Assembly (NCBI GenBank): GCA_964234715.1
Contig: OZ174281.1
From: Podarcis melisellensis
Lineage: Eukaryota
DNA length: 64,000 nt
Reading direction: 5' to 3' (one strand)
The notes below the pieces were generated by a model. That model had not been told where the DNA came from and did not search any database. It worked only from the letters and a program-made list of their open reading frames with translations. A program made the translations under genes and the position numbers. This document shows positions 8,395-58,108 of the stretch, one piece after another. Positions within the stretch are counted from its first letter, which is position 1. Each line of letters starts with the position of its first letter.

Positions 8395-8523
8395 GTTAGC
8401 TCAGGTGGTTAGAGAATGGTGTTGATAATGCCAAGGTCATGAGTTTGAGCCCCATACGGGCCACCTGCCTATGAACTAGGTGACCCTTAGAGTCCCTTCC
8501 AACTCTACAATTACATGATTCTA
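8395..8523 (+). mobile_element. tRNA-derived SINE with CR1-type 3' tail
   Basis: A box (TAGCTCAGGTGG) and degraded B box, then GTCCCTTCCAACTCTAC...ATGATTCTA tail. Confidence 0.65.

Positions 8524-8989: not shown

Positions 8990-9025
<36 letters not shown>
8990..9025. repeat. (GA)n microsatellite
   Basis: Direct reading. Confidence 0.9.
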
Positions 9026-9030
<5 letters not shown>

Positions 9031-10960: not shown

Positions 10961-11425
10961 AAGTAACATCGGTTCAGTTAAAGTTTACTCTCAGGTTAAA
11001 AAAAAAAAGAGTATAGGATTAAAGCTTGAGAAAGAGGGTGTTTTCTCACACTGGTTTTGTGTGGCCTGAACCAGTTCTTAGTTTGGCCTGGTGTTACTTA
11101 AACTTCTCCCCCCCCCCTCTCAGAAAACAGAGGCTAGGATGCCAATTTGAAACTCAGTGTAGTATACTGTCAGTTTAAAGCTGGCGCTAGGAAACGGAAT
11201 TCTTCACACACACTATGGATGGATGGTATCCGTGATTTGTAAATAATGAGCCAATGGCCAAATGTTTCCCTGCAAGGCATATGTAATTGGGGTCAGATAT
11301 ACTTACAGTGTACATAGACTGCAGTCTTAAAACAGGTCTTCTTGCAAGCAGACACTATTGAATTTAATAGGACTTACTCCCTGGTAAATGGAAGTAGGAT
11401 TGCAACCTAAGTCCCATCATAATTA

Positions 11426-11667
11426 CAGTGGTACCTCGGGTTACAGATGCTTCAGGTTACAGATGCTTCAGGTTACAGACTCCGCTAACTCAGAAATAGT
11501 ACCTCGGGTTAAGAACTTTGCTTCAGGATGAGAACAGAAATCGTGTTCTGGCGGCACGGCAGCAGCGGGATGCCCCATTAGCTAAAGTGGTGCTTCAGGT
11601 TAAGAACAGTTTCAGGTTAAGAACGGACCTCCAGAACGAATTAAGTTCTTAACCAGAGGTACCACTG
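11426..11667 (+). mobile_element. Tc1/mariner-type MITE (CAGTGGTACCTC family)
   Basis: TIRs plus TA TSD. Confidence 0.85.
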
Positions 11668-14147
11668 TATATACTGACTCGTTACTACCATGCTTCATTT
11701 TGGTTCCGCCCCCTCCTTATAAAAAAAAATGTATGAAAAGGCCCTGCCAATGCAATTCCAGTAAAAATGCAATCTCTTAGCCTGCTATTTCAGGATGGGA
11801 GACCATGGTTGAAGGTGTCAGTTATGACAGTCCTGTAGTGTAGTCAGTGCTTCAAGTCATGGTTGGGGCTTTGGATGGAAGGGGATACAAATTAGTCTAT
11901 CAGGCTGCAGCAAAGGTCAATCTACCTAAATTGTTTTTGATTTTCCACTATGTTGTATAGAATATTAATGTGTTACATTATTCCCATCCTTTCTATGTAT
12001 AGCACATAGTTCTATATATATATGTGTATATTTTTAAAATGAGAATTGCTGGAAGACCCTTTGGGTGACAAGTGACAATTAAGCGTAATAATAAAAATAT
12101 AGTTCCTCGGAAGTCTTCCCAGCTCAATGAAAACCTTGGCTGCATGCAGCAGTCTTATTGTTTTGAAGGTAGAAGTGTTGCACTTTTAATTCCCCCCCCC
12201 ATATCACATGAAATAAGATTATATTGAGAAAGAGCAGAAACCATTTTGCTGCGTTCCTCCCCTTTTTTTAGGGAAGGGGGCTTGTTGGTGCACCTGGAAT
12301 GAAGACTTGACATAGGAATATGTTTAAAGCTTATATTGATTAAAATATAGCAAGGGCAGCTTGCACCAAACCAAGCGGAAGTGCAGGAAAGTATAACCTG
12401 TGCCTGCTGCTAAAGGCCAAACCACCTCAGAACAACTCCCTCATGCAAGTTATCCTGTAGGAAGCCAAACCATCTTCCCATAAAGGGAAGCCTTGACCAT
12501 CCCACCCTATGCTGTTCAGCGTTCCGCAGGTGGCACCTATAGATATGTTTGTAGTGAAGGAGCTCTGTGTGGAGTAGGGACACTCTGTTCATTTTCTAGT
12601 CTGCTTCTATGGCTCTCTAGACTTTCCCAACCTTGGGTCCTCTCTCCAGATGTTGTTGGACTATAACTCCCATCATCCCTAGCCTGCAGAACCAGTAGGG
12701 GAGGGGGAAAGCTGGTCTAGACAAGTCACTGGCTAAGCCTCATTTTCCTGTCCATAAAATGAGACCATTAATTATCTAATTAGGGCTGTTGTGGGTATAA
12801 AGCATTAGGTTGGGATTCTTATAGAAGTGATAATCGCTTTCTTTATGTGTATTTATTTGGATTTCATCTACAGCGTACTGCACAGATGTCTCGCAAAGCT
12901 GCTGTTAATATGACTGATTTTGAAGAACATGGCAAAGCTTTATTGCTAATCCTCCTAACTCTATGATAAATCTTCACTGTTTTGTTCAAATACACACTAT
13001 GACACAATGTGGCTGTGCTTCTTGCCACATCTTATCATGTTTCATTTTGCAAATCTCAGGACCTCGAGATTAGGATAAACACTATAAAATTTAAATGCTG
13101 TGGCTTAGCCTTACTATATATATAAACTTTTACTCCATTTTTAATGTATGATTTATCTTGCAGGATTTAGTCACTGGATTTCTGTATTATAATAGATTTA
13201 CAAGCTTCGGGAGCCAAACAGTTTTAGAATCTATAGGTGGATTCAAGAGCCCATGATGAATCCATAACCTGCTTTGGTACCAAAACCATGCTTCCATTCC
13301 AGCAGAAAAACAAATCTAGTGAATTGCTTCCAGATTAGGGTGGTGGGATTGGCTAACTCTCCTCCACATGTCCCTTTGAGATGAATGTGGGGCTGACTAT
13401 GGAAGATAGTCTAATGGCATGCTTGTTGTTGTCTGTTGATTTTATTGCTCTTTCCATTTCTGGTCCTAACTTGGCTTCTCCCAAGTTGTGTATGCTGACG
13501 CAGGTAGGACAGCTAGAACAGGTGAAAAGCACAGTGCCCTACTGCTGGCCAGCAGAGGCTCACCCAACTGGGTTGTGGCATGGATGACAAAGTGAGAGGA
13601 GCTGGAGGAAAAGGGATTGACCTAAGGCCCCTATCCCAAGAACAGATCCAAAAGGATAGAGACTCATGAAAATTGAGTGCATCCTCTATACAGTGCATGG
13701 CATGTATTAGCTAGGTTTCTGTCTATTTCCAGAAGAAAACACTAAATAGGTACTGTCTACCTGTGAAAGTATAATGGGGAGTTTAGATATTTAGGAAATT
13801 ATTCTGTATTGCATCTCCTGCACATTACTTCCTGCTGAGCCATGAAACTCCAACTCTGCCCATTTTTAAAAATGCAAACTCAATATTATACACTTTTACA
13901 GGGGGACAGTACCTATTGAGTTAGTGTTTTCTTCTGGAAGGAGACAGAGAAGGGGGGCTTGGAATGCCTTGTTCTTGTTACTACATTCCCTCAGAGGTAA
14001 AAGCTGTCCATTTCTGCACTGTAGTGCAAATGGGATCCATTCACGATAAAGTTGGCTATAAGTAGTTATGCTTTTAGCTGTCATAACCATTAAATCCAAA
14101 CATCAGTTCCCTTAGTATATTCTAGCAACACTTTTGCCATCTGATAA

Positions 14148-14837: not shown

Positions 14838-15068
14838 AGTTTGGATTTAATATCCCACCTTTCACTCCCTTTAAGGAGTCTCAAAGCGGCTAACATTCTC
14901 CTTTCCCTTCCTCCCCCACAACAAACACTCTGTGAGGTGAGTGGGGCTGAGAGAGTTCAAAGAAGTGTGACTGGCCCAAGGTCACCCAGCAGCTGCATGT
15001 GGAGGAGCGGAGACGCGAGCCCGGTTCCCCCGATTACGAGTCCACTGCTCTTAACCACTACACCACAC
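14838..15068 (-). mobile_element. tRNA-derived CORE-type SINE (Squam3-like)
   Basis: On the minus strand: GTGTGGTGTAGTGGTTAAGAGC head, CORE-like middle, simple-repeat tail; partial copy at ~23915-24010. Confidence 0.7.
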
Positions 15069-16130: not shown

Positions 16131-17769
16131 ATGTTGTTGTTGTTATAAATAATAATATAACAGCAAGCCAGGGGGCATGTCAACTGTTGGATCAACAGAA
16201 CAGCCTGTGTAGCCATGCCTTGAACCTGCTGCACCTTTGAACTTTGCCTTGCTTATGTATCACCATACTGACTGGTGGTATATTACATTTTTGGCAGAAA
16301 ATGGTAATCGTCCTTTGTCCAGCCTGAGCCAGGACAGGTTGTGAGCCTCTTCTGGATCCCCAGTGCAGCCCTTTGCTGTTAGATAGTTCAGAAATGAACC
16401 TATAATGGACCGTGCTGACAGTAGATCAGTTGATTTATGTATTTTCTGGTGCAAAGATGTTAAATAATGGCAAGTTCAACTAGCACTGATACCGTAAAGG
16501 CACTTAAAGCAATGTTTATGAGCTTGATACAGGAAAACACTAGGACATGTTTCATTTTGGGCATACAGTCTACTTCACTAAAACATGAACAAGGTGGAAT
16601 TACACATTTACCTGGAAATAAGACCCAGTGAACGCAGTGGGGGTTATTTTTGCATAGACATCATGCTCCACAGCATAGATATAAATATCATCTAGCTTTC
16701 TAATTTGTGGGAAATGCTTAGTACATTTGGAACATTAAAAGAAAATTAAAACATGTTGAATTTTTCATGATGCCAAATGTAATAGCCTTTTGTTTCCACA
16801 AAAGCTCTCAGGCAATCAAGATTGTTATTACTAATAAACTTTCCCTAGTGAATGTGTCTTATTTGCAGAAAAATATATATTTAATTCTTAACTGGTGCTA
16901 TTTTCAACTGATATTTTTCAAAAAATTTATTTTATGCCATCATCTTACACTTCTCCTAGTAAATAAATAATGGACAAACCTTTCATTCACAAAAGGTGTG
17001 CATATTCTTTTTAAGCAATGCACAACCCATTCAATTGTTTGTTTCCTTGAATGCAAAACCCACTGACTTAGGTGAGATGTATTTGAGTAAGGATACATAA
17101 CATTGAAACAAGTGCTTCCAAGTATACATACATTGTCATATAATTCAGGAACTCATCAACCATTTAACTGCATGGATACACCAGCTGGAAATTATTAGGG
17201 TAAAAAAAATCAAATCAACCTGACCTCTCTTCATTTACCATTTTGTAAGCATTTTATAATGTTTTACCCCAGAACCACCACCACTCCAACTTCCAAAACG
17301 GAAATGTATATGAATGCGGCAAATATTTATGCATTCAGTACTGTATTTTAAAATAGTAGATGAAGGATTCTGTTTCCTTACAGTTCATAATGTACTTATT
17401 TCTACTGTGGGGTTCACGGCTTAATTCAAAACTAAAGAGAGAATGTATCGATTAGTGTTAAAGTGAGCATATAAAGAGCCACTGTCTGTGCAAATTCTAA
17501 ATCACACAGTTTTGATAGGGTCTCATGTGGGCTTCCTTTGTGCTGCAGCAAAAGAAGTAAACCCCGGTTAAGAGGAGACTGCATAGCTTAATTTATGCAT
17601 GGTCTCTTTCCTGGGAAGACTTGTGACTAAGTTTACATGCTAACTCTGAGTAATCCCCCAAATAATGTGGTGTGGTCATAAGGTCAGCAGGGTTTGAACG
17701 AGATTGTTAAATTCATCCTCTCTACTGAGTTGTAATGCACATACCAAACACCAAACACAAATGCACATA

Positions 17770-17986
17770 CAGTGGTACCTCGGGTTAAGTACTTAATTCA
17801 TTCCGGAGGTCTGTTCTTAACCTGAAACTGTTCTTAATCTGAAGCACCACTTTAGCTAATGGGGCCTCCTGCTGCCACCGTGCTGCCGGAGCCCGATTTC
17901 TGTTCTTATCCTGAAGCAAACTTCTTAACCTGAAGCACTATTTCTGACTTAGTGGAGTGTGCAACCTGTAACCCGAGGTACCACTG
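17770..17986 (-). mobile_element. Tc1/mariner-type MITE (CAGTGGTACCTC family)
   Basis: TIRs plus TA TSD; inverted relative to the 11426 copy. Confidence 0.85.
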
Positions 17987-21069: not shown

Positions 21070-21956
21070 TGTACTTGCTAATTCAGAGAATGTCCATACA
21101 CATTCAGACAAACATGTCCATGGACACACACATATTCAGTAACTAGAGCCTTTGCCCCTGAGCTCTTTTTTTCCAGAAGGCTAGTTTGAGGAGGGACGGA
21201 AAGTTGGTCCCATTCCACAAAGAGAATTAATAGATAATCACCTTGCCACAGCCAGTCCTCCTACATATTCTTCTTAACTCTGAGTGGGCACTGGGAACCA
21301 TGCCCCCAAGGAAGCCACATTTGATTCTGGTCTTCCTAAGCCTTAAAATTGTCCTCCTCATACATTAACACTTAATATAAACCTTCGCACACAATGAAGG
21401 TTTGCAATCTTCACTTCCTTTGTGATCTGTGGCCACAACCACTCTAAATATAATGCAGCTTTTCATAATTTAAATGATGTAACATAACATGTAATTTCAT
21501 CAGAAATTGGAGTTAATACAGTGTGAATTAATAGGCTACATCTATTTCCTGTTTATTTAAGACGTTCTAGGAGAGAACCACAGCGGACCCATTTGAACGA
21601 AAGCTCTGTGGCATTGGTTTACACAGTTATACGCAAAGCAGCAATAGAAAATTAGATTACATAGCACAGCCTTGATAAAATGTTTAGTTAAAGCATGTTT
21701 AATTTGACCTGTTGGTTTGAGGCCAAATTTTGCAGTCAGCCATGAAGCAGTTGGGCAGCATGTGTGAAATTGAGGTTAGAACTGCTGCTGCTATACTTAA
21801 GTCTGCTGCAAGCTCATTAAATCACTGCTCTGTCCAAAACCCAAAAAAGGTCAATTAAAAGAAGAGGGGGGAAGTGCCACTTTTGGTGCACCCAGTGGAT
21901 TTAGCAGGACCAGTGCTATGTTGTGACTTGTTTCCTTTTTTAGATTTTATAGTCTT

Positions 21957-22007
<51 letters not shown>

Positions 22008-22035
22008 TGTGTGTATGTATGTATGTATGTATGTA
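21957..22035. repeat. Compound (ATTT)n/(ATGT)n microsatellite
   Basis: Direct reading. Confidence 0.9.
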
Positions 22036-23504
22036 TCTATTTATTTAAAAAAGGCTTGTCGTGTGGCACAAGGAGAAGCTGTTTGAGACACATGAGACCA
22101 AATTCCCCTAAGACATAGCTTACCTAGTTGCACAGTTTTGGTTTTGGTTTGTTTTTTACTCCAAGCTGTTATATTTATCTGGCCTGCCTGTTTTTGCTCC
22201 AGATTTGGACTTTAAACATAGCAATGTGGCACAATTCTATACTACTTAGAATTCAGTCCAACTGAATTTAAGGAGACTCATAAGTGGGCAAAATATTGCA
22301 GTCTTGTGTGCTAAGCAGCAAATTTACACTCACTTGCCATAAACTAAGTCCCCTTGAACACAATGGGATTCATTTGTGAGAACAACTACATTACACATTC
22401 AGTAGGGATGGGCGAATCCATCAATTGCAGCTTCTCATTTTTCAAGTCTTCAGTTGTCCACATTTCAACATCAGTTTGCTTTAACTTATGAAAACTCACC
22501 AGCATTTTAGTGCAAAATTCCCCAATATTTCTGTATGCAATTCTACCTAATACACACATTTTTCAAATTCATTTTTATATCTTATTTTCACTATGATATG
22601 CATTTGATGCAAATTTTATCCTAGCATATGCATTCTGTACACATAGGGTCCATATCATATGGTTTAACATGCAGCGTGGTAGCTGCCAACAAATGGACCT
22701 CAGTTAGCAACACTGCACTATATGGAAACCTGCCTGCATGAAGCAGCTCCTGCTGGCATCTTCCAACAGCTCACCACTTTCTCCTCATTCAAATTTTCCC
22801 CAGGATTGTACAGGTCAAAATTACTTGGTCTTGTTTCTGAAGTAGAACTGATGAATTTGAATCCACCATGATTTGATTGATTTTTATTTTTTAGCTTTGC
22901 TCAGAGCACTGTGAATGCACGGCTATCGATTCCTTCAATTCATTTGTGACTCTTCTCCACCCCACTCTGTATTACCAAATGTGTGTGTGTGTTTCTAAAG
23001 CACTGCCAAAAAGCTGCACTCTCAGTGCAATTATTATATGATTGCATCCATATTTTTGTTAATGCATAAGTGCACATGTGTATATTAATAAAAAGCTGCA
23101 CAAAAGGAATTGTTGTTGTTGTTGTTGTTGTAATATTTTATTACCCACCCTTCAGCCTAAGATTCCATACTCATATTATTATCACACTAAGACTTCACTT
23201 ATTTTGGCAGTGTGCTAGCTGTACACACATGCACATTTGATTATGTACAGATTTTAAAATATGGACATTTTCTGAAGAAACTGAACTCCATGGCAAACTA
23301 GACAAGTTCCTATTCCATAAATAGTTTCAAAAATTGTCCTATTTTAGTAGCTAGAGAGACATGTTATTTATTGGCCTGTCAGTTACAATTTAATCCATAT
23401 GCTCACATTAAATTAACACATATGGGGTAATGCAGATCTGAAGACAGAGAAGTAGTCTTGGGAGAAATGGTTAGAATGTGGAATATATACATTATACCAG
23501 CTGA

Positions 23505-23837
23505 GAGGCTCAGACTGAGATTTGCCAATCGGAAGGTGGGCAGTTCAAATCGCTGCGAAGGCGTGAGCTCCCGTTGCTCGGTCGCTGCTCCTGCCCACCT
23601 AGCAGTTTGAAAGCATGTCAAGTGCAAGTAGATAAATAGGTACCACTCTGGCGGGAAGGTAAACAATGTTTCTGTGCGCTGTTCTGGTTTGCCAGAATCG
23701 GCTTAGTCATGCTGGCCACATGACTCGGAAGCTGTCTGCAGACAACCCTGGCTCCCTCGGCCTATAGAGCGAGATGAGCACACAACCCCAGAGTCATCCG
23801 CAACTGGACCTAATGGTCAGGGGTACCTTTACCTTTA
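23505..23837 (+). mobile_element. 5'-truncated Sauria SINE
   Basis: Body and GGGTACCTTTACCTTT tail homologous to 917-1282. Confidence 0.85.
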
Positions 23838-24902
23838 AACTGTTTGGTACTTACAGAAAACTAAACCCATGTTTAAGCCATGTTAAATGGATTTTGGTAA
23901 GGTAGAAGTTTATAAGGTCACCCAGCAGCTGCACGTGGAGGAGCGGAGACATGAACCCGGTTCCCCAGATTACGAGTCTACCGCTCTTAACCACTACACC
24001 ACACTGGCTCTCTGCGGAGAAGTGTGGAGCAGGGAATTAGAAGGTATTATACAATGTAAACAATGGAAAATTGGTATAGAGTCTATACAAAATGTTTCTT
24101 TAGACGTCAAACTGAGATTGGTGCAGGAAAATGCAGTCTTTTGAGCATACTACAACATTTGCATAGGAAAGCATTTATAATACAGATGTGGAAGATGTAA
24201 TGCTGAGAATGCCTCTTATGACGTCAGCTTCTCCAGTGATATCTACCCTTTGGTCTTAATTTGTTACAGCACTTTTGTATTGGTGAAATCCTTGATATTT
24301 ACAGATTTTCATGTACTTTTAAACTATATTCCTGTAGTATGGGGATTAATGGATGGACAGTGAAAGTTGAGTTTTTTTATACTTCAAGTCTGGAAAGAAA
24401 AATACCCAATGGCATTTATAGTAGTCTTAGGACCTCACTGCCCTAGCTACTTTTCATATAGGCATCCATTTCATATGCATGTTGTCTGTTAAATTAATAT
24501 ACATTCTGATTTGCTGAGAGTAGGGTTGAAAGGATCTGCCAGTTTAGGTTCTCTCTTGTTTCTCATTTTTACAAATCAAATTAAGTTCTCCACATCTTAC
24601 AGCAATTTGCAACAAAAATCCTCATTAAAATTCATTACCATTTTAGTGCAAATTTTTCCTAGTAAACACACTTTATATGCAGTTTTCAGAAATGTGTGTA
24701 AGTCCCCCTAATATAATGCATATTTGTATGTTCCTTTCATGAATATAATTATTTTTATGCATACTTCCCCACAATATATGCATCTTTGTAAACATTGGTT
24801 GGAGAACTGCGTCACAATGTGTATTCCGGTTCATATGTTGTTTTGGAAAGTGTGGGTTCAACAGTGTTAAATGAATCAAATTTCTCCTCCATTCCCCAGT
24901 TA

Positions 24903-25144
24903 CAGTGGTACTTCGGGTTAAGTACTTAATTCGTTCCGGAGGGCCGTACTTAACCTGAAGCTGTTCTTAACCTGAAGCACCACTTTAGCTAATGGGGCCT
25001 CCTGCTGTTGCTGTGCCGCCGGAGCATGATTTCTGTTCTCAACCTGAAGCAAAGTTCTTAACCTGAAGCACTATTTCTTGGTTAGCAGAGTCTGTAACCT
25101 GAAGCATATGTAACCTGAAGCGTATGTAACCTGAGGTCCCACTG
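24903..25144 (-). mobile_element. Tc1/mariner-type MITE (CAGTGGTACCTC family)
   Basis: TIRs plus TA TSD. Confidence 0.85.
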
Positions 25145-26601
25145 TAGTGGAAAGGTTAGATAATGTTGTATCCAAGCAAGTGTTGCCCACCCTTTCCAGT
25201 GCAGTTCCCTGTCACTTTCCTTCTTGCCAAACGTTCAATACTTTGAAGAAGCAGGTCTGTTACACAAGACCTTCCAATCAAGTATAATTGTGCAACCTGC
25301 TGGTTTGTGATTGACTCTCACTAGTAAATAGCAACAGTCTAGAAGCATCCCATGTCCATTTTCTCTAAACTATATATAACTCTATACACTTTGATCATGT
25401 CACCATTTAATATATGGCACCATGCTTGTGTATTTTGTGACTGGCACATTATAAACTGCAGCTTCAGATATCTGGAAGGAGGCAGGTTATCTAACCACAA
25501 AAAAAGAACAGCAAAAGATAACTCTCCTTCACTTTTATAATTAACAGTGAATAATAATTTTTGCACAAATGTGTAGCCATCTTTTGTGACCTAGTGCCAC
25601 TTGAAGAGAATGGGAAAGAAATCAGTTTAAAAGAGCCATTGGAGTCTGACCTTGGGGTAGACAACAGGAATTAATAAACAACTTGGATCAGATATAATAA
25701 CAGTAATGGAAACTTGCCGTCATAGAAATGAAATGCCATTCTGCACACAAGCAGGACTCGGCTTTTTGAATCCATCACACTGATTCAGGCAAATATTCAC
25801 AAGGCTTTGAATGTGATTGAAAAGAGGGATGCCAAGGTTACCCTCTGCCTACGCAGTGTGATAAATACACTGACACATCTCCTGAAGTGACAAACTTGCA
25901 TGTGAAAATGGAACTTAACTCATTGGCATAGGATGATGGCGATGATGCAGCCACAGGTGTTGGGTGACGGATGGAGCTGACATTTGGAGGTTATTCTGAG
26001 AATGAGCTCTCGCCTGAGCATTTCATATAGCTAGATGTGTGGCAAAATGAAGTTCTGATGTGCTATACTAGTATTCTATGAGACGTGTTTCCTCAAGATT
26101 CCATGCTAGTTATCAACAGATGTGTTAAATCTTTCTGTATGGCATTCCAGGATGATTTGCAAAGGGAGGGGATTGCTACAGTAGGGGAACATAATATAAC
26201 AATATTTAAACAGGACAAGGTCTGCAACTTTGGTTGCTAACATGGTGACCTCCAGATGTTGTTGGACTACAACTCATTATTTAGTATTAGATTTTATTTG
26301 GCTACCCTTAACTTACTTAGTATAGATTATAAGAAGATGTACGGTTGGAGCAGAGCCATCATGACCATGAGAGTCTTAGGAAGATAAGAATTCTGACTGG
26401 AATTCAGTGCTTTACTGGGGTAGGAGTTTGGGAATGGTAGATAAGCTGTTAAATCCATCTGCCTGCCTATTCCTTAGCTACCCTGCTGACCTGGGCTATT
26501 TCTTTCTCTTGGTTGATCTTGGAGGGAGAGAACTGAAACCAGCTGTGTGTAATGTGAAAGACCTGGCCCATAGACTTATTTAAAGGGTGCTGCTGTTTGA
26601 A

Positions 26602-26780
26602 GGGTCATAGCTCAGTGGCAGAGTGTCTGCCTTGCAAGCAGAAGTTTCCTGGTTCAATCCCTAACATGTCCAGTTAGGGTTGGGAGAGACTCCTCTCTGA
26701 AATCCTGGTGAGCTGCCAACAGTACTGAGCTAGTTGGACTAATGGTCTGACCTGGTATAAGGCCGCTTCCTAAGTTCCTA
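26602..26780 (+). mobile_element. tRNA-derived SINE (Squam2-like)
   Basis: TAGCTCAGTGGCAGAG A box, GGTTCAATCCC B box, non-tRNA body, TTCCTAAGTTCCTA tail. Confidence 0.7.
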
Positions 26781-29210: not shown

Positions 29211-30996
29211 AGTTGGAGGCCCCTGTGCCCTCTTTCCTAGTATATTGATTCTAATCACCCAATGTCCACAGAGTGGTTTACATAAAAAAAAGATAAACCA
29301 CATCATTACAACTCACAGAACACAATTAAAATAGCAATAATAAAACCATGCATGCAAAACAATTGCTATAAAACCAAAGATGCTCAAGGTTCAAACACAG
29401 TCTAACTGTAGTCACCAAAAGCTAGGGAAAAAAACAACAACTAAATTTCCGTCAAACAGTGAAAGCCCAACAATGACTAATGTTTGATGTTTTATCGTCT
29501 TTTAAATATTTTGTTGGGAGCCACCCAGAGTGGCTGGGGAAACCCAGCCAGATGAGCAGGGTATAAATAATAAAACTGATAACAACAACAACAACAACAT
29601 ATCCTTTAAGCACTCTCCAGGTGTTCTCTAAATGTATTAACTAAGCACACAAGGAGGTTAGCAGAGATGAGTGTGGCACCCACTATTATCATTTTCCCTG
29701 GCAAAGTTCTAAAAAGTGCTGGTTAGCTACATAAGTTCAGGGGTCTCCTGACTTCAGACTGTTGCCCTCCAACTTGTGAAGGGCAATGAGAATAATGATG
29801 TGGGCCTGGAGCTAGCATGCTCCTCCCAACTACCCCCCTTGCATGTTCAGTTAACACATTTAGATGATGCCTGGAGAGGGCTACATATGCATTGGAACCA
29901 GTGTAGGAGCCTAACTTCTGCGGGAAAGCGTGTGGTGTCCTTGCCATTTTGAAAACTCATAAATCACAATTTGCATAGAGTTTGCTACTCCCTAAATGCT
30001 GGTGATTGAGTTATAAAAAATTCTGTTGGACAAGGCAGTAGTGAGCGCATTAGAAAGATCTGTAATGACTGCATTGCTGCAAAAGAAGTGTTAGAGATAA
30101 TCCACTGCCATCTGTCTTTATTTTGCAAAGCCACTCAACTGGAGACCATATTTACAAAGGAAAAACAACAACACTTATTACAAGAAAGAGCTGGAAGACT
30201 AGTGCAAAATTATCTTCACAGAGATACAGCTGCATTCCAAACAGTACTATGTTCATTCAGTTACCCAATTTTAATTTGAAGCCTCGCAAGCAAAGCTTTT
30301 ATTAAAAAATAAATAAATGTAAAAATGCAGATCTTTGTGTAATCAGAATACACAGGATACATAGGTGTGCACTGAGTGTTACTTCTGGGCATAATTTTCT
30401 TCTAAATGATTTCTTTTCAGTGTGTCACACAGCAGTAAATTAATCATGCAGAGTCTTCTTCATAAACAAATTAAAACTTTACTGAAGAAAATAAACTTGT
30501 TCATAAACAGGATAGTTAAAGCGCATACACAGAGTGCTCATAGCTGCTACCTGCCTCTTCACAGAGGCACAGTCTTAGTTAGTGATTTACTAGAGTCCTG
30601 GAGCCACTCTGTCTGCCTTAGCTTTACACAGCAGCAGCAACAACAGCACCATTCCACAGACTACTCCATACACAATCCATACAGCTCTCTGATGGAGGCC
30701 CATAGCGAGACTGGCTACTTTTATTGGGAGAATGAGTCACAGTGATTTAGCAGTTTGCTGTTAACAGTTAGCAGGCTTAGGCTTGAATGATTTTGTTGGC
30801 CTTACTGCTTCTACTGCTCTCAGGAATCTTTGTCTCATGACACTGTGGCCACAACATTATCACACAGGGTTGGTTTACTGAATATGAAATATGAACAGCA
30901 TACAATCAAACAGAAAAATTGTTGAACATCCTACAAGGTGGAGCTAGATTGCCTAATGTGCAGAAATATAGTACACAATTTGCAAGAAAGGAAAAG

Positions 30997-32147
30997 TGTA
31001 GCACCCTGCTTGTGGTTAACGCTTAGCTGGAATGAAATATTCAACGCAGCAACAGAGAAATTAAAATAATAATTTATTTGTCAGACAAATAAATGAGAGG
31101 CACAGTGGTATATGGTTACCAAGCTCTGGCCTGGCCTCCTGCCATTCTGGCCAGCACTTATATTCCCTTAATCCAGCCCCCTTTGCTCCTCCTTGGGCTG
31201 CCTCTGTTCAATCAGCCTGGTTGGATTTCCTATTGGCTGATTGCTATAACTAATCACAAAAAGATACACCCATATCCTCCTGTCCTTATAAGGGAGACAA
31301 AGAGCTATATATAAATGACAAATAAGTAATAATATATCTTACATGGAATCTTAATTACCAGCTCACCTCTTGCCCTCCTTGCCCTATTGCCTTCTAAAAC
31401 AAATGGTTAATCTTACATTTTTATCTTCAAGGATCTTGAGTTAATCATCATTGAAAGATCTCCTTCATTTGAGGGTCTTTTAAACAAATGCCTGACAACT
31501 ATATATCAGAAGTGTTCGATGGCGTCTCCTGTCTGGCAAGGGGGGCTAGGCTCATTTGCCCCTCTGGTCTCCTATTGCAATATGACTCTATGAATCTAGC
31601 ATTTCTTAAATCCTTTGCATAATTACATTTAAGCCAGCATATTTCATACATAACATATATAGCTTTTTAGAAGGATAAATCTCCTCAAAGTAAAAGGAAG
31701 GAACAGTTTACAGCCTCAAAATAAAAAGTGAAGAAAAAAGTCTCTTCCCCTGTTTACACTCCCCCCCTTCTCCAGCCAGTTGTTTTCAAAACCATTTGCT
31801 CTTGGCCTTTTACCCTGTGGCTCAAGTTTAAGAAAGGCCCATGGTATCATTTTACTATTTGCCCATTCCTAATTGTGTTTTCTCAGCCTTTTTTATGTTC
31901 TGTAACATGCAGGATCAGTGTCCTTGCTCTCAGTCTGTAATTTCCTCTTTTTTTAAACGACTTTGAGAATTGTTTTTCCTGCTATAAATCAGGGGGGGGG
32001 CCCTTGTTCAGGAGGAAAACATTGCCAAGGTTCCTCTGCCTGGCATGAAACATTTGAAAATCTAAGCCCATTTAATTTAGGAACCTGATCAAGATATAAG
32101 CCAATATAAGTCTTGATTAAAAATGCAGTCTATATTCAGATGCCACA
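30997..32147 (-). repeat. 3' LTR
   Basis: Identical by eye to 36812-37962; minus-strand CCAAT at ~31232, TATAAG at 31157-31162, AATAAA at 31073-31078. Confidence 0.97.
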
Positions 32148-32158
32148 TTCCCCCCTTT
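32148..32158 (-). other. Polypurine tract
   Basis: AAAGGGGGGAA immediately 5' of the 3' LTR. Confidence 0.9.
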
Positions 32159-32176
32159 CAAGCTCAAGGACCTTGC

Positions 32177-33611
32177 TTACCAAGCGTCCTTGATAGCTTG
32201 ATCTTCATCATATTCCTGAGGTAAAGCTCTGTATAGGGCCATGATATGAGGTAGAGTTTCATTCGAAATCATCTTGCTAATTGTACTTCTAAAACATGAG
32301 ATGATACATGGCACCATACATAAAACCATTATTACTACCGTCAAGAAAAACAAGCAAGACAATAATATCCCTTTGAGTCCCGCAACATTAGGTAACCAAT
32401 TGGTGAGCCATCCCATATCCCATCCTTCCCATGTTTGTACTTGGACATGTGCTATATTCTCCATCTTTGTAGCCAACACACGGATTGCCTCACCATTATC
32501 AGAAATGTTAAAGCAACAGGCATTCCCTGTCAAGTTCAAGACTCCACATAGGCCTCCCTGCCTGGCAAGTACATAATCCATTCCCATTTTCAGCTGCAAA
32601 ATGGCGGCTCTACTTTCATCCAACTGTTATGCAATAAGTCTCAAACTCTGGGCCGTTGCATTGGTTACAAGTTCCACTACTGCTTGCAATCGAATTATTC
32701 TGTTTAGATTATAAATAGGATCCCGTGCCCCTTGTATGAGCTCACCAGGATTCCAGGAGGCAGGATCATAATAGGCTATAATGCGCTCTGGCGGCCAATC
32801 ATCAGTACCGCTCCAACTTTGGGTACTTCCTCCTGCTATACGAGAAATATCAGCATTCCTTCGTGTTCGCTTAGCTGAACTAGTGGGCATAATCCACATT
32901 GGTGGTAATACCCATCCCAGGAAACAAGTCCCACTCCATTTGGAAGGGAGTTTCTTGTATGCCCATTCTCCACATATCCACCACAACCATCGGGTCTGAG
33001 GTTTTTGGTACGTGGAGTACAGAAGGCGAAAATATCAAAAGAGGTAGAGAGTTCACAGTGCAGTATGTTAGATTGCCTTTTTCTGTCACAGTTATGTTCC
33101 ACACCACTTTCCATGCATGAATAAAAGGAGGTGCACAGGGCAAGGTATTCCGAGTTCGATACGTAGTACCGTTTGCCCAGGTTTGACTATTCTTAATATA
33201 ATCCCAAGTATAGTGGCAATGAGAAGAGCCTATCATGGTAGGATCAGCTGCATCTGATGATTTATGCACACAGATTTCCCCTTGCACAGGTATAACTCGT
33301 ATTGGTTTAGTTGAGTTCCAACCGGGGAAATTCTGTACTTCTGTTTGGTGTGGCATTTCGCTTACCATACCAATGGCACTTAATGGTATTGGTAATAAGG
33401 GCATACCTCCCTCTGAATCATCTGGCCCAAGAGAGCAAACAAGGCAATTGGTCCTATTTGCAACATTGGCTACCATTTCAGCTAAACCTACCCACATATT
33501 GTGGTCATGGCTGAATCCATATTTAGCAAATTTGGTCAGATTCAAGGACCCTTCCCTTTCCCAAGGGATCAGGATTAATAATAAAATCATGTTGATGTCT
33601 AGCATATGCAT
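32177..33611 (-). pseudogene. env: Disrupted env (ERV3/HERV-E-like gamma-type SU-TM)
   Basis: Signal peptide MLDINMILLLILIP, CxxC (CLVC), WWICG..AY.KLP..WSGTC, furin site RTRR, WPPERII.YY.PA.W, LNRIIRLQAV, Cys loop, TM helix; frameshift(s) at ~32987-33050 and an in-frame TAA at 32627-32629. Confidence 0.93.
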
Positions 33612-33711
33612 TCCTTCCACAAAAGATTACCTTATTGTGATAGCAAATAATTATTAGTCCCAATATAATTCCCCCAGTGACAGAAATGGGGAACCACCAA
33701 GACCAAAACAT
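33523..33711 (-). CDS. Candidate small hydrophobic pre-env ORF (62 aa)
   Basis: MFWSWWFPISVTGGIILGLIIICY...; one TM-like segment; overlaps the env start in another frame. Confidence 0.3.
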   Translation of the reverse strand: MFWSWWFPISVTGGIILGLIIICYHNKVIFCGRNAYARHQHDFIINPDPLGKGRVLESDQIC

Positions 33712-33922
33712 ATATCCCAAGGATCCCCAATGTGTAATATCTCTGATAATTGTTCCACAAGGGGGCAGTCAATCAATTGTATAAGAGAATCTTCCCGTTC
33801 ACAATTGCTGGTTTAGACGCTCCTCAAGCTCCAGGCGTGCGCAGGTCAGCCAGCTTCCAGGTTGTGGCTGCAGCAGGCCGGTCGTCTAATGTTGCCCGTG
33901 ACCTAACCCGTTCCCGGTAGGG

Positions 33923-34409
33923 CTAGATACAGGGGTTTTTGGAGAGAGTCAGTTTTAAAGGATTAGAGGGGTCACCTTTGCACGTCCAACTGCCTCCGGA
34001 CTTCTTCAAACGAGAGTGATGAATCCAGGGGGTCACCTCAGCTACCTTCACCGCTGTTAGAATAGAGAGCAGGACGGTGTAAGGTCCACGCCACTTAGGT
34101 GCAAGTGGATCACGTTTCCACTCTTTCACCCATATGCTATGCCAGCCTGGAGCTGATGAATCGGCTTGGCAATGCTGCACGGCGTGTGCTTGAGGGCCCA
34201 CCTGTTAAGATAAAAAAACAAACAAACACGGGAGAGAGACAAAAACACGGGAGAGATTGCACTTGTCCCTGTGTCACATGGTCTCCTATTTGTTTGAGGT
34301 CAGTTGGAATATCCTGAACAAAGGAGGGCGGCCTCCCATACAGGAGCTCAAAAGGTGACAACTTAAGTCTTTTTGTGGGTGCGCACCGAACACGAAACAG
34401 TGTTATGGG
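33923..34409 (-). pseudogene. pol: pol remnant: integrase C-terminal part only
   Basis: PITLFRVRCAP...LSPFELLYGRPP, then WVKEW...LAPKWRGPYTVLL...AVKV..VTPWIHHSRLK (GPY/F module); contains an insertion and a frameshift. Confidence 0.92.
34201..34258 (-). promoter_or_regulatory. Probable env splice acceptor
   Basis: Long pyrimidine-rich tract ending ...TTTTTATCTTAACAG|G (intron end 34202). Confidence 0.6.
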
Positions 34410-34999
34410 TCAGCAAGCACATGGGGATATTAAAGCAGCCTGTGCTTTTCCTTTGCAGGCTTGGCACAGCCCGGCCTGGTCCCTGGGGTGCAGGGCCGTA
34501 AGAGATGGAGGCAGGCTGGGCCCTCTCCCTCCTGGGTGAAGCACCTGCCGGAAGCCTCGTGGCAATCATCCCCCCCCCCGGGGGCACACGCAACAGACAC
34601 TGGGGCCAACGGAGCGTGGTGGGTTAGGGTGGCAAATGCCTCTCTGAGCTCCGCAGAAAAGCTGAACTTGCACCAGAGCCGCCTCTGACCCACATAATGG
34701 GCTATTGCCAGCTTGTATTTTAGGGAGCTGGTTTCTTGTTTTCAGCCTTGCAGCAGCAGTACCCGACTGCACACACTTAATGTGATCTCACAACAATCCT
34801 AGGAGGTAGGCCATGGTTATTCCCATTGTAGAAGAGAGGAGAAACGGAGTGATATAATGCCAGCAGTAGTATAAATATGTCCCCATACATGCACCATACA
34901 AATAAAGAGTGGACACATAGTCCTACAGATACAACCGGCCCTTTGAGGGTGACCAAACTGTTGATGCGGCCCCCGATGAATTTGAGTTTGACACCCCTG
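34410..34999. other. Non-retroviral cargo replacing most of gag-pol
   Basis: No retroviral reading frame seen; contains a GC-rich exon/intron-like piece (34410-34775), a MIR/CORE-like fragment (~34780-34850) and a hAT terminus (~34850-34999). Confidence 0.8.
34850..34999 (-). mobile_element. One end of a hAT (Charlie-like) DNA transposon
   Basis: Begins CAGGGGTGTCAAACTCAAATTC on the minus strand; the adjacent 8 bp are GTCTAAAG; no second TIR found. Confidence 0.75.
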
Positions 35000-36310
35000 C
35001 TTTAGACATATTAGTGGGCTTCTGGCATGCCCTGCAGATGCCTTGCACAAGCGTCTGGCGGTAGGTAGTAAGCCTGGCCAGGTGAATTGCATTGTTTGGA
35101 TCCCAATTAGGATCTTCCAAGGGAAAGTTGTCCTGGAGATGATGGTCAATATTATAAATATTTCCCACTCTGGCCTGCTCACGCAAATATATCTGTGCCT
35201 TTTCAATTATGTCTCTCCTTTCCTCAGTGGTGAAAAGAGTATTCAGGAGCTGGCGACAATCTGTCCAAATAGGACTATTACTATTAAGGTCACCAAGTCC
35301 ATCATAGCCTGAGGTTTTTCTGCGAAAGATGGGGTGTTTTCCAATTCATCAGATCTGTAGTTGTGAATGGAATACATTGCAGGGTCGAAGTTCGAGGTGG
35401 CCGTGGTCCAGGTTGCCCATTAACCAGCACAGGCTCCTCAAGTGCATCAAATACTCTTCTAAGAGGGGCTACTACGTGACCTTTTTCTTCACTTTGCTCT
35501 AGGGGCCTCAAATCATAGGGGATGGTATTTGTCCCAAGGCGTTCTTTTAGCAGCTTTATACGCCTGGCTGTATTGCTTGCTGACCGATTAAGGTCTCCCT
35601 GTAACTTCTGTAATAATTCTCTAGGACTTGGATGTACAGGGGTTTGGGGTAGGCAATCAGTTGTTCCACTAAAAGAGACTGTAGATGGAGTTCTACTGGG
35701 ACTCACAGGTGGAATAACCACTTCTGCTTGGGCTTCATTATAGGACTCCAATGCCTCCTGAAGATATTTATCATAATCTATCAAGGAATCAAGCTCTGTG
35801 ACTCCACCCCCATTATTCGTTCCACTTTCTTGCCTTGGGGTTACAACTGGTGGAGGGTTTGAATTAGGCTCCCTTCGATGTGGAGCATAGGGGGGAGGTG
35901 GAAGCACCTCTTCCTCTGGTCCCTCAAAAATGGGTTTAAGTTTATTTGGCAAGATTCCTTTCCTAGCTTCGGCTTTTACAGCCAATAATTTGCATCGTTG
36001 GACTTTGCATTCCCTTATCCATGGAGGATTTTTTTATTTAATGTGCTCAGCCAGGAATCTATATATGAAAATTGTTCTGGGCACCCTCCAGTTTCTTTGG
36101 TGATGTTAGACCAAAGTTTGCTTACTAAATTTATATCAAAGGTTCCCTGGGATGGCCATCCAGTACTTTGTTTTGGCTACCCTAATTCACATAACGTTCT
36201 CAAGCGCTCTGGCGTCATTTTGACTCCATATGCCCCTGAGAAGGCTTTCTTAAAATTATTTAACATACATTCAAGAGGTGTATTTCCCCCTTTGAACCCC
36301 CAACTCCCAT
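35000..36310 (-). pseudogene. gag: Disrupted, 3'-truncated gag (MA, late domain, CA N-terminal part)
   Basis: MGVGGSK myristoylation motif, TPLECMLNNFKK, LRTLCE..GWPSQGTF, PPPY, PFTTTDLMNWK, PIWTDCRQLLNTLFTTEER, FPLEDPNWDPN, KPTNMSK; about 4 frameshifts and a TAG at 36177-36179; no MHR or NC. Confidence 0.93.
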
Positions 36311-36601
36311 TGTATGGCCCTGTGAAGTATCCACTCAGTCACTCACACACACGCCTTACTGGGAAACGAAGTAGTACTCACTCCACACTTAGGTCAGCTA
36401 CACATTGTACTTTCTCACACATGCAATGTGCTAGATACTTCAACCACACTCTACCTCCCAATCTTCCCTTTTCCCTACACCAGATCACCATCTGATGTAC
36501 CCAGCCACCTAGCGTACTCAGTTCCCCTTTACTGAGACGCAGAAGTTTGATCAGGACTTCTCTTCCTCCCAATTAATTGGAGGGCCAAAACCCCTTAGTG
36601 C

Positions 36602-36610
36602 ACTTACCCT
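36602..36610 (-). promoter_or_regulatory. Major splice donor of the provirus
   Basis: AGG|GTAAGT consensus in the leader between PBS and gag. Confidence 0.75.
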
Positions 36611-36787
36611 TAGCTGGTTGCCTGTTTCCCCCGGTCCGTCGCCGCCAGTGAGCAGGGTATCAGACAGACGAGACTTCTGCGTTCCCCCTGGAAAAATTTA
36701 CCAGTGCGCGCTGGGAAGCAGTTTAGAGATCCTCTCTCTTGTACCCTGTCCAATAGGGCGAAGGGGCTGCGTTCCAGCAGACCACTT

Positions 36788-36806
36788 ATCCGAGTCGCAG
36801 GCACCA
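36788..36806 (-). other. Primer-binding site, tRNA-His-like
   Basis: TGGTGCCTGCGACTCGGAT versus the tRNA-His(GTG) complement TGGTGCCGTGACTCGGAT: one extra base and one substitution. Confidence 0.8.
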
Positions 36807-36811
36807 TAAAA

Positions 36812-37962
36812 TGTAGCACCCTGCTTGTGGTTAACGCTTAGCTGGAATGAAATATTCAACGCAGCAACAGAGAAATTAAAATAATAATTTATTTGTCAGA
36901 CAAATAAATGAGAGGCACAGTGGTATATGGTTACCAAGCTCTGGCCTGGCCTCCTGCCATTCTGGCCAGCACTTATATTCCCTTAATCCAGCCCCCTTTG
37001 CTCCTCCTTGGGCTGCCTCTGTTCAATCAGCCTGGTTGGATTTCCTATTGGCTGATTGCTATAACTAATCACAAAAAGATACACCCATATCCTCCTGTCC
37101 TTATAAGGGAGACAAAGAGCTATATATAAATGACAAATAAGTAATAATATATCTTACATGGAATCTTAATTACCAGCTCACCTCTTGCCCTCCTTGCCCT
37201 ATTGCCTTCTAAAACAAATGGTTAATCTTACATTTTTATCTTCAAGGATCTTGAGTTAATCATCATTGAAAGATCTCCTTCATTTGAGGGTCTTTTAAAC
37301 AAATGCCTGACAACTATATATCAGAAGTGTTCGATGGCGTCTCCTGTCTGGCAAGGGGGGCTAGGCTCATTTGCCCCTCTGGTCTCCTATTGCAATATGA
37401 CTCTATGAATCTAGCATTTCTTAAATCCTTTGCATAATTACATTTAAGCCAGCATATTTCATACATAACATATATAGCTTTTTAGAAGGATAAATCTCCT
37501 CAAAGTAAAAGGAAGGAACAGTTTACAGCCTCAAAATAAAAAGTGAAGAAAAAAGTCTCTTCCCCTGTTTACACTCCCCCCCTTCTCCAGCCAGTTGTTT
37601 TCAAAACCATTTGCTCTTGGCCTTTTACCCTGTGGCTCAAGTTTAAGAAAGGCCCATGGTATCATTTTACTATTTGCCCATTCCTAATTGTGTTTTCTCA
37701 GCCTTTTTTATGTTCTGTAACATGCAGGATCAGTGTCCTTGCTCTCAGTCTGTAATTTCCTCTTTTTTTAAACGACTTTGAGAATTGTTTTTCCTGCTAT
37801 AAATCAGGGGGGGGGCCCTTGTTCAGGAGGAAAACATTGCCAAGGTTCCTCTGCCTGGCATGAAACATTTGAAAATCTAAGCCCATTTAATTTAGGAACC
37901 TGATCAAGATATAAGCCAATATAAGTCTTGATTAAAAATGCAGTCTATATTCAGATGCCACA
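36812..37962 (-). repeat. 5' LTR
   Basis: TGTGGCA...GCTACA; CCAAT at ~37047, TATAAG at 36972-36977, AATAAA at 36888-36893. Confidence 0.97.
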
Positions 37963-38693
37963 AAAGGACTAACAGTGCTGAGAGTGCCATTCTAAATGCA
38001 CCTACAAGCCTCATAATTCTAAGTATAGGATTACCATTGCAAATGAGTGACTTGTAGGGAAAACTGGTGGCAATCATTTTAGGCGCATCCAAATGACACA
38101 TGATTGGCAACACGTGGGTGCTTTGGGACCTGGTAGAAGGCAGAATGGGGGGTTGCAGGGAATAGAATGGGGCATAGCAGGGCTGAAATACAATGCTTGG
38201 AGTACAATGTTTACTTACTTTGGTTTTGATCTGAAACAGCAATATTGACATTTTTATTGTGTTTTGTTTACTTCTTAATACATTAATTTAATATCAGTGT
38301 AGTATAGGTGATTATGCCTTTTGGCAAGACAGGTGAGATGTTATGATTTGTTTATTCGTTCATGGAAGATCCTTACATCTCACTTTTTCTCCTATCTGGA
38401 GCATAAAGCATCTAACATCCAATAGATAAACAATTATACAAAATAACACATAACTGAAACCACAAAATTGTACTCTGTCTCAAGTGACAGCTGAGATTTC
38501 AGTGTATAGCACTTAATAATCCAACAGCAATTCAACTAATAAGTGAGGCAATAAAAATATAACCATCAGCTAATAGTGGAACAATAAAATAAATCCCAAA
38601 TAATCAACTAATAACAGAAATAAAAGCACACATTATAATTTACCCTCTGCCTTTCCCTTCCTCAGTAGCAACAGCATTTTACGCTGTTTAATC

Positions 38694-52512: not shown

Positions 52513-53937
52513 AACTAAATACAATCCCCAGAGTTTCATGGAAAGAAGGGATGATTGATAAACCACTCTGGGAAGCGTAGCTTTGTGAGGGGAATAGTTC
52601 ACAACACAAAATGTGGAAGTGAGCAAACATGTGGATTCACTTTAAGGGAAATGTTCAAATGTCAGTTGTGACACAATGCTATTGAAGACATGCGTTTTGG
52701 ATAAATTATTTTTATTTTCTACTTTAAAAAGTGTATACTAACACATTTAACATGCAGAAGTGTCATTATTTGACAGTCTGTTGAGTCCAGATTTATTTGG
52801 ATGTGGATAGCTCATACTAGTTTTAGATGCCCACAATGCCATTTACATGAGATTATATTGTATCTTGTGACTTTTGAAGGCCTCATGCAGAAACACTGTT
52901 GTATTTTTTCATGGTGAGGTGTTTTGAAAAAAGGTTTCTTAAGTATTTTTCTTTGGTGTGGTATCCCCTCCCCCCCCCCACACACATGGAGGCTATTCTC
53001 AAGAATACCTCACCATGTGAAAATAATGTGGTAAGTCATTGCATGAAGGTTTTGCTATGTCAACAAATAATGTGGGAACTGACCTTCATTGCTTAGAGAG
53101 TTTAAAAAGAACTATCAGGGAAACCTGGCTGAAGGCTATGCACAAACACTCTTTCTCTTTTTACCTCCCTTCTGAATCTCACTGCAGCTGGAAAGTATCA
53201 TAGCACAGATGTGTTCTCAGGAAGCTATTCATTAGAATTCAAGAGCGGTATAAATCAAAATGCATTTTTCACTTTTTTGAAAAGAAAAACAAAACTGTCT
53301 GCATAAATTTCCTCTCGTTTTCCTTCCTCAGGTTTCTCTTCTGTCCTCACAACTCAGGGATGAGATAAAATAAACAAAAGAACATCTGAAGATCACCTTT
53401 TAAAATTAATTTCACTTACAGTTATTACAGGTGATTCATTCCCACACATTCAAAGTGGGAGGCAAGGCTGACAAATCAAAGTGACTTCTAGAGGAATCCC
53501 ATTTTCTTAAGATCTTTCTATGTTCACTTTTGACCTTGCTCCGACTACTTCCATCACCAGTCTTAATAATTCTTACATTAATATCCTGCCACCATCTATT
53601 CTAGAAGACAATTAGAAGATTCTCAGATTCACCGTGGCAACAAACATCCGGAGTCTCTTAAATGTCGTGCTGCCTGGAAAGAGAACAAATGCCTGGGTCG
53701 CCCATAACCTTTTCAAATGTTTGTTCCATGTTCAGTAGTGAAAGTGGACAGGGACAGGAAGGGGCAGGGATAGAGTTGAAGCAAAACATTGCCGATCTTC
53801 TGCCGGCACAGTCGTGCTGTCATTGCTGCCTACACTGGTGTCTTGTTTCTTTTAAGAAAATGATACTCGCTGAGATGGGTTAGAAGAGTGAATCAGAGAC
53901 TGATTCTCTGCATCTTCACTGCACAGCCAACTAATGG

Positions 53938-54003
53938 AAGAAGAAGAAGAAGAAGAAGAAGAAGAAGAAGAAGAAGAAGAAGAAGAAGAAGAAGAAGAAG
54001 AAG
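53938..54003. repeat. (AAG)22 microsatellite
   Basis: Direct reading. Confidence 0.92.
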
Positions 54004-54737
54004 AGCGGCAACATAACGCATAGAGCTGTGTAGAAATGGCTTCTCAAAATTCTTCTTTGTTGGCAAAGAAATTTGGGGAATTTCCATAGGAAGCGGAGAA
54101 ATTCTTTAACTGTTTTTTTGGGGGGGTCCACTCATAGCAGTGACATTACCTTAGCTTCCTTCTTTTAAATTCCTTCCTTTCTTCCTTTGAGCCAATGGGG
54201 GGGGGGGTATAACATGACGGGGAAGAAGAGGGAGGAACCCCCCCTCAAAGCAAAAGTCCTTACATGGGCTTCTGCTAGCAGGAACAGTTCGTTGAATCTG
54301 GCTCCAAGCTTCCATTTATCCATTCTACTCTGGGTGGCAGATAAAATGCTCTCATCCTCTGCTCTGCTCGTGCAAGACCCTCTGCCAACACTGGATAATT
54401 CCTCATCCTCGCTGAAGCCCTGTAAGGCACATCTCACAATGCCTCCTAGGTCCCCTCAACTATCTAGAGAGATTTTTTAGGGAATAGATGGGGTTGCAGG
54501 GAAGAGGAGGGGAAGAGAAATATCTGTTGGTTCAGTTGCACTCTTCTTGCATAGTATTGAGTACAACCCATACACCACAGTGGACCTAGAAGGAATATTA
54601 AACCAGAAATGATAGCAGAGAAGGAGGAGTTTTCTTGGCTCTGATAGAAGGAGAAGGCAATGCAATGATAACATGGTTCCTGACTACACTAAAGACATGA
54701 GGCTCTGTCTACCCATTGGATTGGTTCAACTCAGAGT

Positions 54738-57671: not shown

Positions 57672-58108
57672 GAGAGAAGAGTCTTTTCCAGGGAGTCTTC
57701 TCTTCTCATGAGGTGGCCATTGGAGCCTCAGCTTCAGGATCTGTCCTTCCAGTGAGCACTCAGGGCTGATTTCGTTAAGAATGGATAGGTTTGATCTTCT
57801 TGCAGTCCATGGGACTCTCAAGAGTCTCCTCCAGCACCATAATTCAAAAGCATGAATTCTTTGGCAATCAGCCTTCTTTATGGTCCAGTTCTCACTTCCA
57901 TACATCACTACTGGGAAAACCATAGCTTTTACTATATGGACCTTTGTTGGCAAGGTGATGTCTCTGCTTTTTAAGATGCTGTCTAGGTTTGTCATCACTT
58001 TTCTCCCAAGAAGCAGGCATCTTTTAATTTTGTGGCTGCTGTCACCATCTGCAGTGATCATGGAACCCAAGAAATCCCCTTCTATTTGGCAGGAGGTGAT
58101 GGGACCAG
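57672..58108 (-). mobile_element. BovB (RTE) LINE fragment, C-terminal part of the ORF
   Basis: GSMITADGDSSHKIKRCLLLGRKVMTNLDSILKSRDITLPTKV.IVKAMVFPVVMYG.E.WTIKKA...AFELWCWRRLLRVPWTARRSN. Confidence 0.93.

Follow-up and report, generated by a model that had tools for sequence, protein, structure and literature searches.

In the recombinant elements known as recKoRV, the ends of koala retrovirus (KoRV) surround a PhER centre and are flanked by target site duplications (TSDs) (PMC6112702). In cattle, the defective D-type copies of ERVK[2-1-LTR] make up 85% of the clade catalogue and dominate its de novo insertions, and the same paper points out a common pattern in which the central segment is swapped while the gag and env flanks are kept; helper-copied defective endogenous retroviruses (ERVs) are also proposed there to drive ERV families extinct (PMC10924933). 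Among mouse VL30 elements, 42 of the 86 full-length copies carry identical long terminal repeats (LTRs) and none has an intact open reading frame (ORF) (PMC4859993). A literature search, with most subscription journals and Repbase/Dfam outside its reach, listed no report of helper-copied defective ERVs in lacertids or other squamates. Here we analysed a stretch of 64,000 nucleotides from the lizard Podarcis melisellensis (contig OZ174281.1 of assembly GCA_964234715.1; hereafter the window), which carries a provirus of 6,966 bp, LTR to LTR, on the minus strand (30997-37962). We consider it probable that this provirus is a non-autonomous class I ERV mobilised in trans, that is, that a chromosomal copy already damaged gave rise to RNA which the proteins of a helper then brought back into the genome.

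The element is an integrated LTR retrovirus, with two direct LTRs, TG..CA ends, a short TSD, a polypurine tract (PPT) and the order gag-(pol)-env. On direct alignment the 3' LTR (30997-32147, minus) and the 5' LTR (36812-37962, minus) were identical at 1151/1151 bases, the identity breaking off exactly at both termini, and all six mononucleotide runs of at least 6 bases were equal in length between the copies, as the first-pass annotation had judged by eye when it reported two 1151-bp LTRs without differences, homopolymer lengths included. Each LTR starts with TGTGGCA and finishes with TGCTACA (inverted repeat 6/7) and holds, in this order, CCAAT (37047-37051 in the 5' LTR), TATAA (36973-36977, same LTR) and the poly(A) signal AATAAA (31073-31078 in the 3' LTR). 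Direct sequence comparison placed the left and right copies of the 4-bp TSD, AAAG, at 30993-30996 and 37963-37966; these, together with the exact TG..CA ends, point to an integrase-made junction. A processed copy made by L1 was rejected, both LTRs being complete, the TSD 4 bp long and a poly(A) tail absent. The PPT adjoins the 3' LTR (32148-32161, minus) and the leader contains a splice-donor motif (36602-36609, minus). The primer-binding site (PBS; 36788-36806, minus), set off from the LTR by a 5-nt spacer, is tRNA-His-like: compared with the 18-nt tRNA-His primer (PMC3253121), the first 7 and last 9 of its 19 nt match, the middle differs and one base is extra. All the cis elements listed by the first-pass annotation (TSD, PBS, PPT, splice-donor motif, poly(A) signal) are thus present, with the correction that the PBS is imperfect. 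The window contains no N, the flanks of the element are clean and unique, and nothing else in the 64 kb is similar to the provirus.

Lesions in the coding remnants were mapped against close relatives, 89-98% identical and two of them from Podarcis. These comprised P0001, an open gag of 642 aa that includes matrix (MA), p30 and a CCHC finger and belongs to a cluster of 16 (contigs of up to 8497 bp), a partial Podarcis raffonei model covering gag, protease (PR), reverse transcriptase (RT, with the motif YVDD) and RNase H (P0002), and a 481-aa Podarcis muralis env (P0003; cluster of 56); known at the protein level, all three are candidate helper proteins. The remnants sum to ~3.2 kb, and the Pfam domains Gag_MA, Gag_p30 (3e-16), MLVIN_C (7e-12) and TLV_coat (2e-6) each lie in separate frames. 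The gag remnant (35000-36310, minus), identified by Gag_MA and Gag_p30 and by tblastn with P0001 and P0002, comprises MA, a proline-rich spacer and the N-terminal domain of the capsid protein, at 89-93% amino acid identity to these two relatives. It falls into five frame pieces, with four frame changes near 36290, 36033, 35330 and 35283 and a premature stop near 36178, and its homology stops at residue 440/642, short of the motif like the major homology region (MHR; residue 445) and of the CCHC finger (568). The env remnant (32177-33611, minus; TLV_coat), full length but broken, is 95-98% identical to P0003 at the amino acid level and consists of two frame pieces, with one frame change near 33031 and one premature stop near 32628; the CXXC of the surface subunit (SU), the furin site and the CX9CC of the transmembrane subunit (TM) are recognizable. 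Between them lies the C-terminal remnant of integrase (IN; 33923-34409, minus; MLVIN_C E=7e-12), spread over more than one frame, whose C-terminus gave 581 library matches at E<=0.001 (best 66% identity), while the IN core remnant gave none among solved structures.

A six-frame reading of the IN remnant by eye, with known integrase motifs as a guide, seemingly shows about two further frame shifts, so that the lesions total ~9, namely five frame changes and two stops in gag and env and the ~2 frame changes in IN. Querying the window by tblastn with the PR, RT and RNase H of P0002 gave no match below E=3. The MHR, nucleocapsid (NC), PR, RT, RNase H and the start of IN are missing, a loss of roughly 3.5-4 kb as estimated from the lengths of the relatives and a typical IN length, and the element has no coding capacity for usable Gag, PR/RT/RNase H, intact IN or Env. 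Both the earlier count of about 8 or more frameshifts and stops in ~3.2 kb of gag, IN and env and the reported absence of pro, RT, RNase H, MHR and NC were borne out by these comparisons.

The absence of differences over 1151 positions limits LTR divergence to <=0.26% (95%), which bounds the age of the integration to <0.29-1.3 My if the rate per site per year is assumed to be 4.5e-9 to 1e-9. For the decay-in-place test we used inactivating lesions only, with 118-130 nonsense site-equivalents in 2673 remnant sites versus 2302 LTR sites. Two stops with zero LTR substitutions had a P of 0.0024-0.0028 and five indels with none in the LTRs a P of 0.045; the joint P for five frameshifts and two stops with the LTRs untouched was 1.1-1.3e-4, or 7-8e-4 after dropping three run-associated frameshifts as possible sequencing errors. 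The gag and env lesions, set against LTRs without a difference, therefore make decay in place unlikely, and this statistical test (P ~1e-4 to 3e-3) supports the conclusion that the inactivating lesions are older than the integration. If the lesions pre-date the integration, the genome that integrated was already defective and must have been mobilised in trans, as the first-pass annotation had proposed; the joint P of ~1e-4 supports this on statistical grounds, and relatives with open gag, PR-RT-RNase H and env frames exist. Its description of a very recent insertion of a long-dead provirus needs toning down on both counts: the age bound, on assumed rates, fits a fairly recent integration, while the neutral decay implied by the two stops is modest, ~1.5-1.7% with a wide error, which corresponds to about several My on the host clock and to less if reverse-transcription errors contributed.

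The gap left by the end of gag, PR, RT, RNase H and the start of IN is filled by a non-viral insert of 590 bp (34410-34999, minus; IN-side boundary approximate). It matched neither P0001 nor P0002 by tblastn, nor Pfam in six frames, the PDB or the rest of the window. Frames that resembled the RT connection by eye had made hidden pol a candidate, which was ruled out by tblastn with P0002, six-frame Pfam and PDB searches (two chance matches at E=0.5). On its gag side, where the insert begins on the minus strand, it has a single 16-bp terminus (34984-34999, minus) similar to that of hAT-type transposons: this terminus starts with CAGG and agrees with the terminal inverted repeats of the Anolis elements hAT-N5_AC and hAT-HT2N1_AC at 13/16 and 10/16 positions, respectively. 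Directly before it lies an 8-mer derived from gag (35000-35007, minus), whose sequence agrees with the target consensus of hAT elements, NYYTARRN/NTNTANAN, which, like the termini, was taken from Anolis (PMC3014272); NYYTARRN fits just 6 of the 1314 positions of the gag remnant. This hAT-type end after a target-like gag 8-mer, within the filler of the gap, is what is new at this locus. Since the terminus directly follows the target-consensus 8-mer, a DNA-level hAT insertion into a chromosomal provirus is suggested. Anolis hAT-N5_AC, hAT-N4_AC and hAT-HT2N have the same kind of CAGG-type 16-bp terminus and adjoining target 8-mer (PMC3014272), whereas here one end and one target 8-mer are present, and the likeness is judged on terminus and target only. 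No second hAT end was found in the window at <=5 mismatches, nor any related copy there, nor a copy of the target 8-mer at the IN-side junction. With the family assigned from one end, we describe the insert as hAT-like only; the missing far end is consistent with a later deletion, and the simplest reading of the insert would be that a hAT transposon entered gag, after which its far end was deleted together with most of pol.

We propose the following course of events, of which the order, the helper and the date are inferred. A provirus of the family elsewhere in a lizard germline chromosome would have decayed, gathering stops and frameshifts; a hAT DNA transposon would then have landed in the gag of this donor, and a deletion of ~3.5-4 kb would have taken the far end of the transposon along with the MHR, NC, PR, RT, RNase H and the start of IN. 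If the LTR, PBS, leader and PPT were still usable, the donor RNA could have gone through packaging, reverse transcription and integration with the proteins of a competent relative, likely from an ERV3-like reptile lineage, perhaps switching template to the RNA of this helper on the way. This last step would have reset the LTRs to identity and created a fresh 4-bp TSD, within the last few hundred thousand to ~1 million years. As the donor phase (~1.5%) is at least 10x the time after integration (<=0.13% per lineage), it is more probable that both the insertion of the hAT element and the deletion belong to the donor phase.

Several points weigh against this interpretation. The decay-in-place test takes the mutation rates of LTR and coding sequence as equal and is blind to gene conversion, and the placement of the hAT insertion and the deletion before integration is argued from relative time spans alone. 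In 341 columns the element has 10 private missense changes, P0001 9 and P0002 4. The similarity to P0001 means that these changes may reflect viral divergence; they were set aside, and a dating based on them (1.3% per non-synonymous site, P ~1e-6) was dropped, since P0001, with its open frame, has comparable private changes. The same comparison, 10 versus 9, is a further reason to regard "long-dead" as overstated. The mismatch in the middle of the PBS might lower priming from tRNA-His, and folding of the leader was not above that of shuffled sequences (z -1.35; 17/200 equally good), which leaves a packaging signal unsupported. A protein search with the chimeric gag-insert frame gave 0/5 significant candidates, a weak negative owing to length and word limits. 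P0002 has no NC and, as a partial gene model, is no proof of an intact provirus, and a single locus was seen, with neither a sister copy nor a donor.

Gene conversion, to which the test is blind, underlies the alternative that an old provirus decayed in situ and that its LTRs were recently homogenised from end to end, by conversion or by recombination with a sister copy, which we regard as unlikely. LTR-LTR conversion is a recognised source of false youth, but according to the same source it is quite infrequent for HML-2 (PMC3228705), and decay of ~1.5% per lineage predicts ~30 LTR differences, so that one tract would have to span all 1151 bp. Base composition bears on this alternative as well: CpG observed/expected was 0.12 in the LTR (5 CpGs only), 0.15-0.19 in the flanks, 0.29-0.53 in the coding remnants and 0.53 in the leader and IN remnant. 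The LTR thus looks host-aged, depleted of CpG like the flanks and below the coding remnants, although an old chromosomal donor predicts low LTR CpG equally. The imperfect PBS also suits an element without recent replication.

An assembly artefact, in which a single LTR consensus was placed twice, or many of the frameshifts come from homopolymer errors that long reads left in a repeat after poor polishing, or both, appears very improbable. Multi-copy repeats polish badly in assemblies, the cluster sizes of the relatives indicate a multi-copy family, and three, arguably four, of the five gag and env frame changes lie, by eye, in or beside mononucleotide runs. Against this stand the gapless 64 kb, the unique flanks with their TSD and the concordance of LTR run lengths between the copies; stops, a large deletion and a 590-bp insert are unlike homopolymer-type errors, and LTRs that differed about every 40 bp should have been separable even with short reads. 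We give least credence to the idea that a competent virus integrated recently and that all the damage arose during that round of replication or later in place, with no helper. Identity between the remnants and relatives with open frames is still 89-98%, and a hAT insertion and a deletion are each feasible within a million years; yet seven mapped small lesions versus zero in the LTRs have a P of ~1e-4 under decay on the host clock, and a single round of reverse transcription, with errors on the order of one per genome or fewer, yields far fewer lesions than are seen. Mobilisation of a damaged copy in trans remains the explanation that we favour. A wider version of it, in which wall lizards host a still-active ERV3-like retrovirus that drives a multi-copy, insertion-polymorphic satellite with a hAT-end centre through its RNA cycle, we put forward as a tentative and rather doubtful possibility. 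The recently or currently active virus and the parasitic satellite lineage that the first-pass annotation saw implied are likewise an overstatement for a single locus.

With regard to classification, the TM motif is CX9CC and not CX6CC, the typical motif of gamma-type TM (PMC9967133). Within the EnvR (ERV3-like) supergroup, which is made up of endogenous sequences, CX9CC is reported solely for group 1, whose sequences include some from Podarcis (10.1101/2024.03.17.585361). In group 1, according to the same preprint, ~40 residues separate the CXXC from the mature N-terminus and ~175 separate it from the C-terminus of SU; in P0003 the CXXC is at precursor residue 56 and the furin site at 248-251, ~195 residues apart compared with the ~175 of the preprint. 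Used as a proxy, the RT of the relative P0002 reached 781 bits with the top p80 RT chain, versus 165 with foamy Pr125Pol and 82 with chain 7sr6, and among solved structures it is closest to the RT of murine leukaemia virus and XMRV. Judged on its Gag_MA, Gag_p30 and MLVIN_C domains, the TM motif and these scores, the element is a class I ERV with a gamma-like pol and an EnvR/ERV3-type env, and by its TM motif the env falls in group 1 of the EnvR supergroup, an env family already covered by preprint 10.1101/2024.03.17.585361; the relatives point to a lacertid host. Because its TM has CX9CC instead of CX6CC, we do not class it as a Gammaretrovirus proper.

Two further features lie within the element. 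Within the IN remnant, a long run of pyrimidines that ends in AACAG (34202-34256, minus) is a candidate splice acceptor for env, a function assigned from sequence; it includes a 14-bp direct duplication and looks lengthened. An 81-codon stop-free frame with a hydrophobic stretch (33523-33768, minus) lies between IN and env and overlaps the start of env; it had no Pfam match, the best score in an Atlas search (0.76) was not meaningful, and it is possibly a small accessory membrane protein, or chance.

The insertion site looks intergenic or intronic. Of the 256 ORFs of >=58 aa in the flanks, none had a Pfam match at E<=0.001. A GC-rich stretch at ~9000-11000 (GC 0.53-0.62) holds long ORFs of low complexity that had no match in Pfam; it may represent a CpG island, promoter or first exon of the host. 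Weak tRNA matches at 8389-8465, 26603-26672 and 61750-61807 (ARAGORN tRNA-Ile; Rfam 32-36 bits) are probably the heads of tRNA-derived short interspersed elements (SINEs). Dispersed repeats at 4272-4866, 11421-11671, 17767-17968 and 24900-25148 occur in both orientations and are 78-94% alike; the copy at 4272-4866 has inverted ends (4273-4348/4791-4866) and resembles a miniature inverted-repeat transposable element, probably of the Tc1/mariner type. Two repeats are present in two copies each (963-1277 with 23522-23837, and 14978-15068 with 23914-24004), presumably resembling squamate SINEs. A 166-codon frame (57636-58136, minus) without a Pfam match at E<=0.001 resembles the C-terminal part of the protein of an RTE/BovB-type long interspersed element. 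The window also contains long microsatellites, (GAA) x 22.7 at 53937-54004 and (TTTA) x 23 at 21956-22047.

The hAT end provides a natural barcode, in that any other locus carrying this gag junction can only descend from the same donor. If sister copies exist, the element would clearly illustrate how reverse transcription by a retrovirus can spread a piece of a DNA transposon, and if there are also empty sites, it would become a reptile test case and show that a class I lineage of the ERV3-like kind was replicating within about the last million years. An active virus accompanied by a hAT-centred satellite would, if real, be a reptile counterpart of KoRV and recKoRV with a class II passenger. 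As a single locus, the element mainly cautions that identical LTRs tell when the latest integration happened and not when function was lost.

The nearest described relative is the Podarcis ERV with an EnvR group 1 envelope (10.1101/2024.03.17.585361; UniRef A0A670IH61; P. raffonei LOC128411581), with which our element has in common the TM CX9CC and the CXXC near the SU N-terminus. Identity amounts to 95-98% between the env of our element and the P. muralis protein and, in the matched stretches, to 90-100% between its gag and the P. raffonei model (LOC128411581). The accessible text of the preprint covers the structure of Env and not the age or mobility of proviruses, and the copy in the window is broken in every gene. 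Like recKoRV (PMC6112702), the lizard element retains gag and env ends around a foreign centre and has a TSD, and in both cases remobilisation by a co-resident virus has been inferred; the centre of recKoRV, however, is the old retroelement PhER, acquired by recombination, whereas here a DNA-transposon end lies at a target motif, and recKoRV is found at many loci as opposed to the one seen here. As in the cattle D-type elements (PMC10924933), which are trans-complemented by competent copies, a defective provirus has kept intact cis ends and remnants of gag and env, but the D-type elements are class II (ERVK) and their mobilisation was measured directly, while the lizard element is known from one sequence. 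With VL30 (PMC4859993), and with ETn/MusD and IAP I-delta-1 (cited in PMC10924933), it shares identical or near-identical LTRs, a PBS, a PPT, multiple stops and the lack of an intact ORF; unlike VL30, which has no env and 86 full-length copies with LTRs of their own, it has a whole but broken env and was seen once. Although several loci would be needed to give it the status of a propagating family, by analogy the lizard element appears to work in the same way as VL30, recKoRV and the D-type elements.

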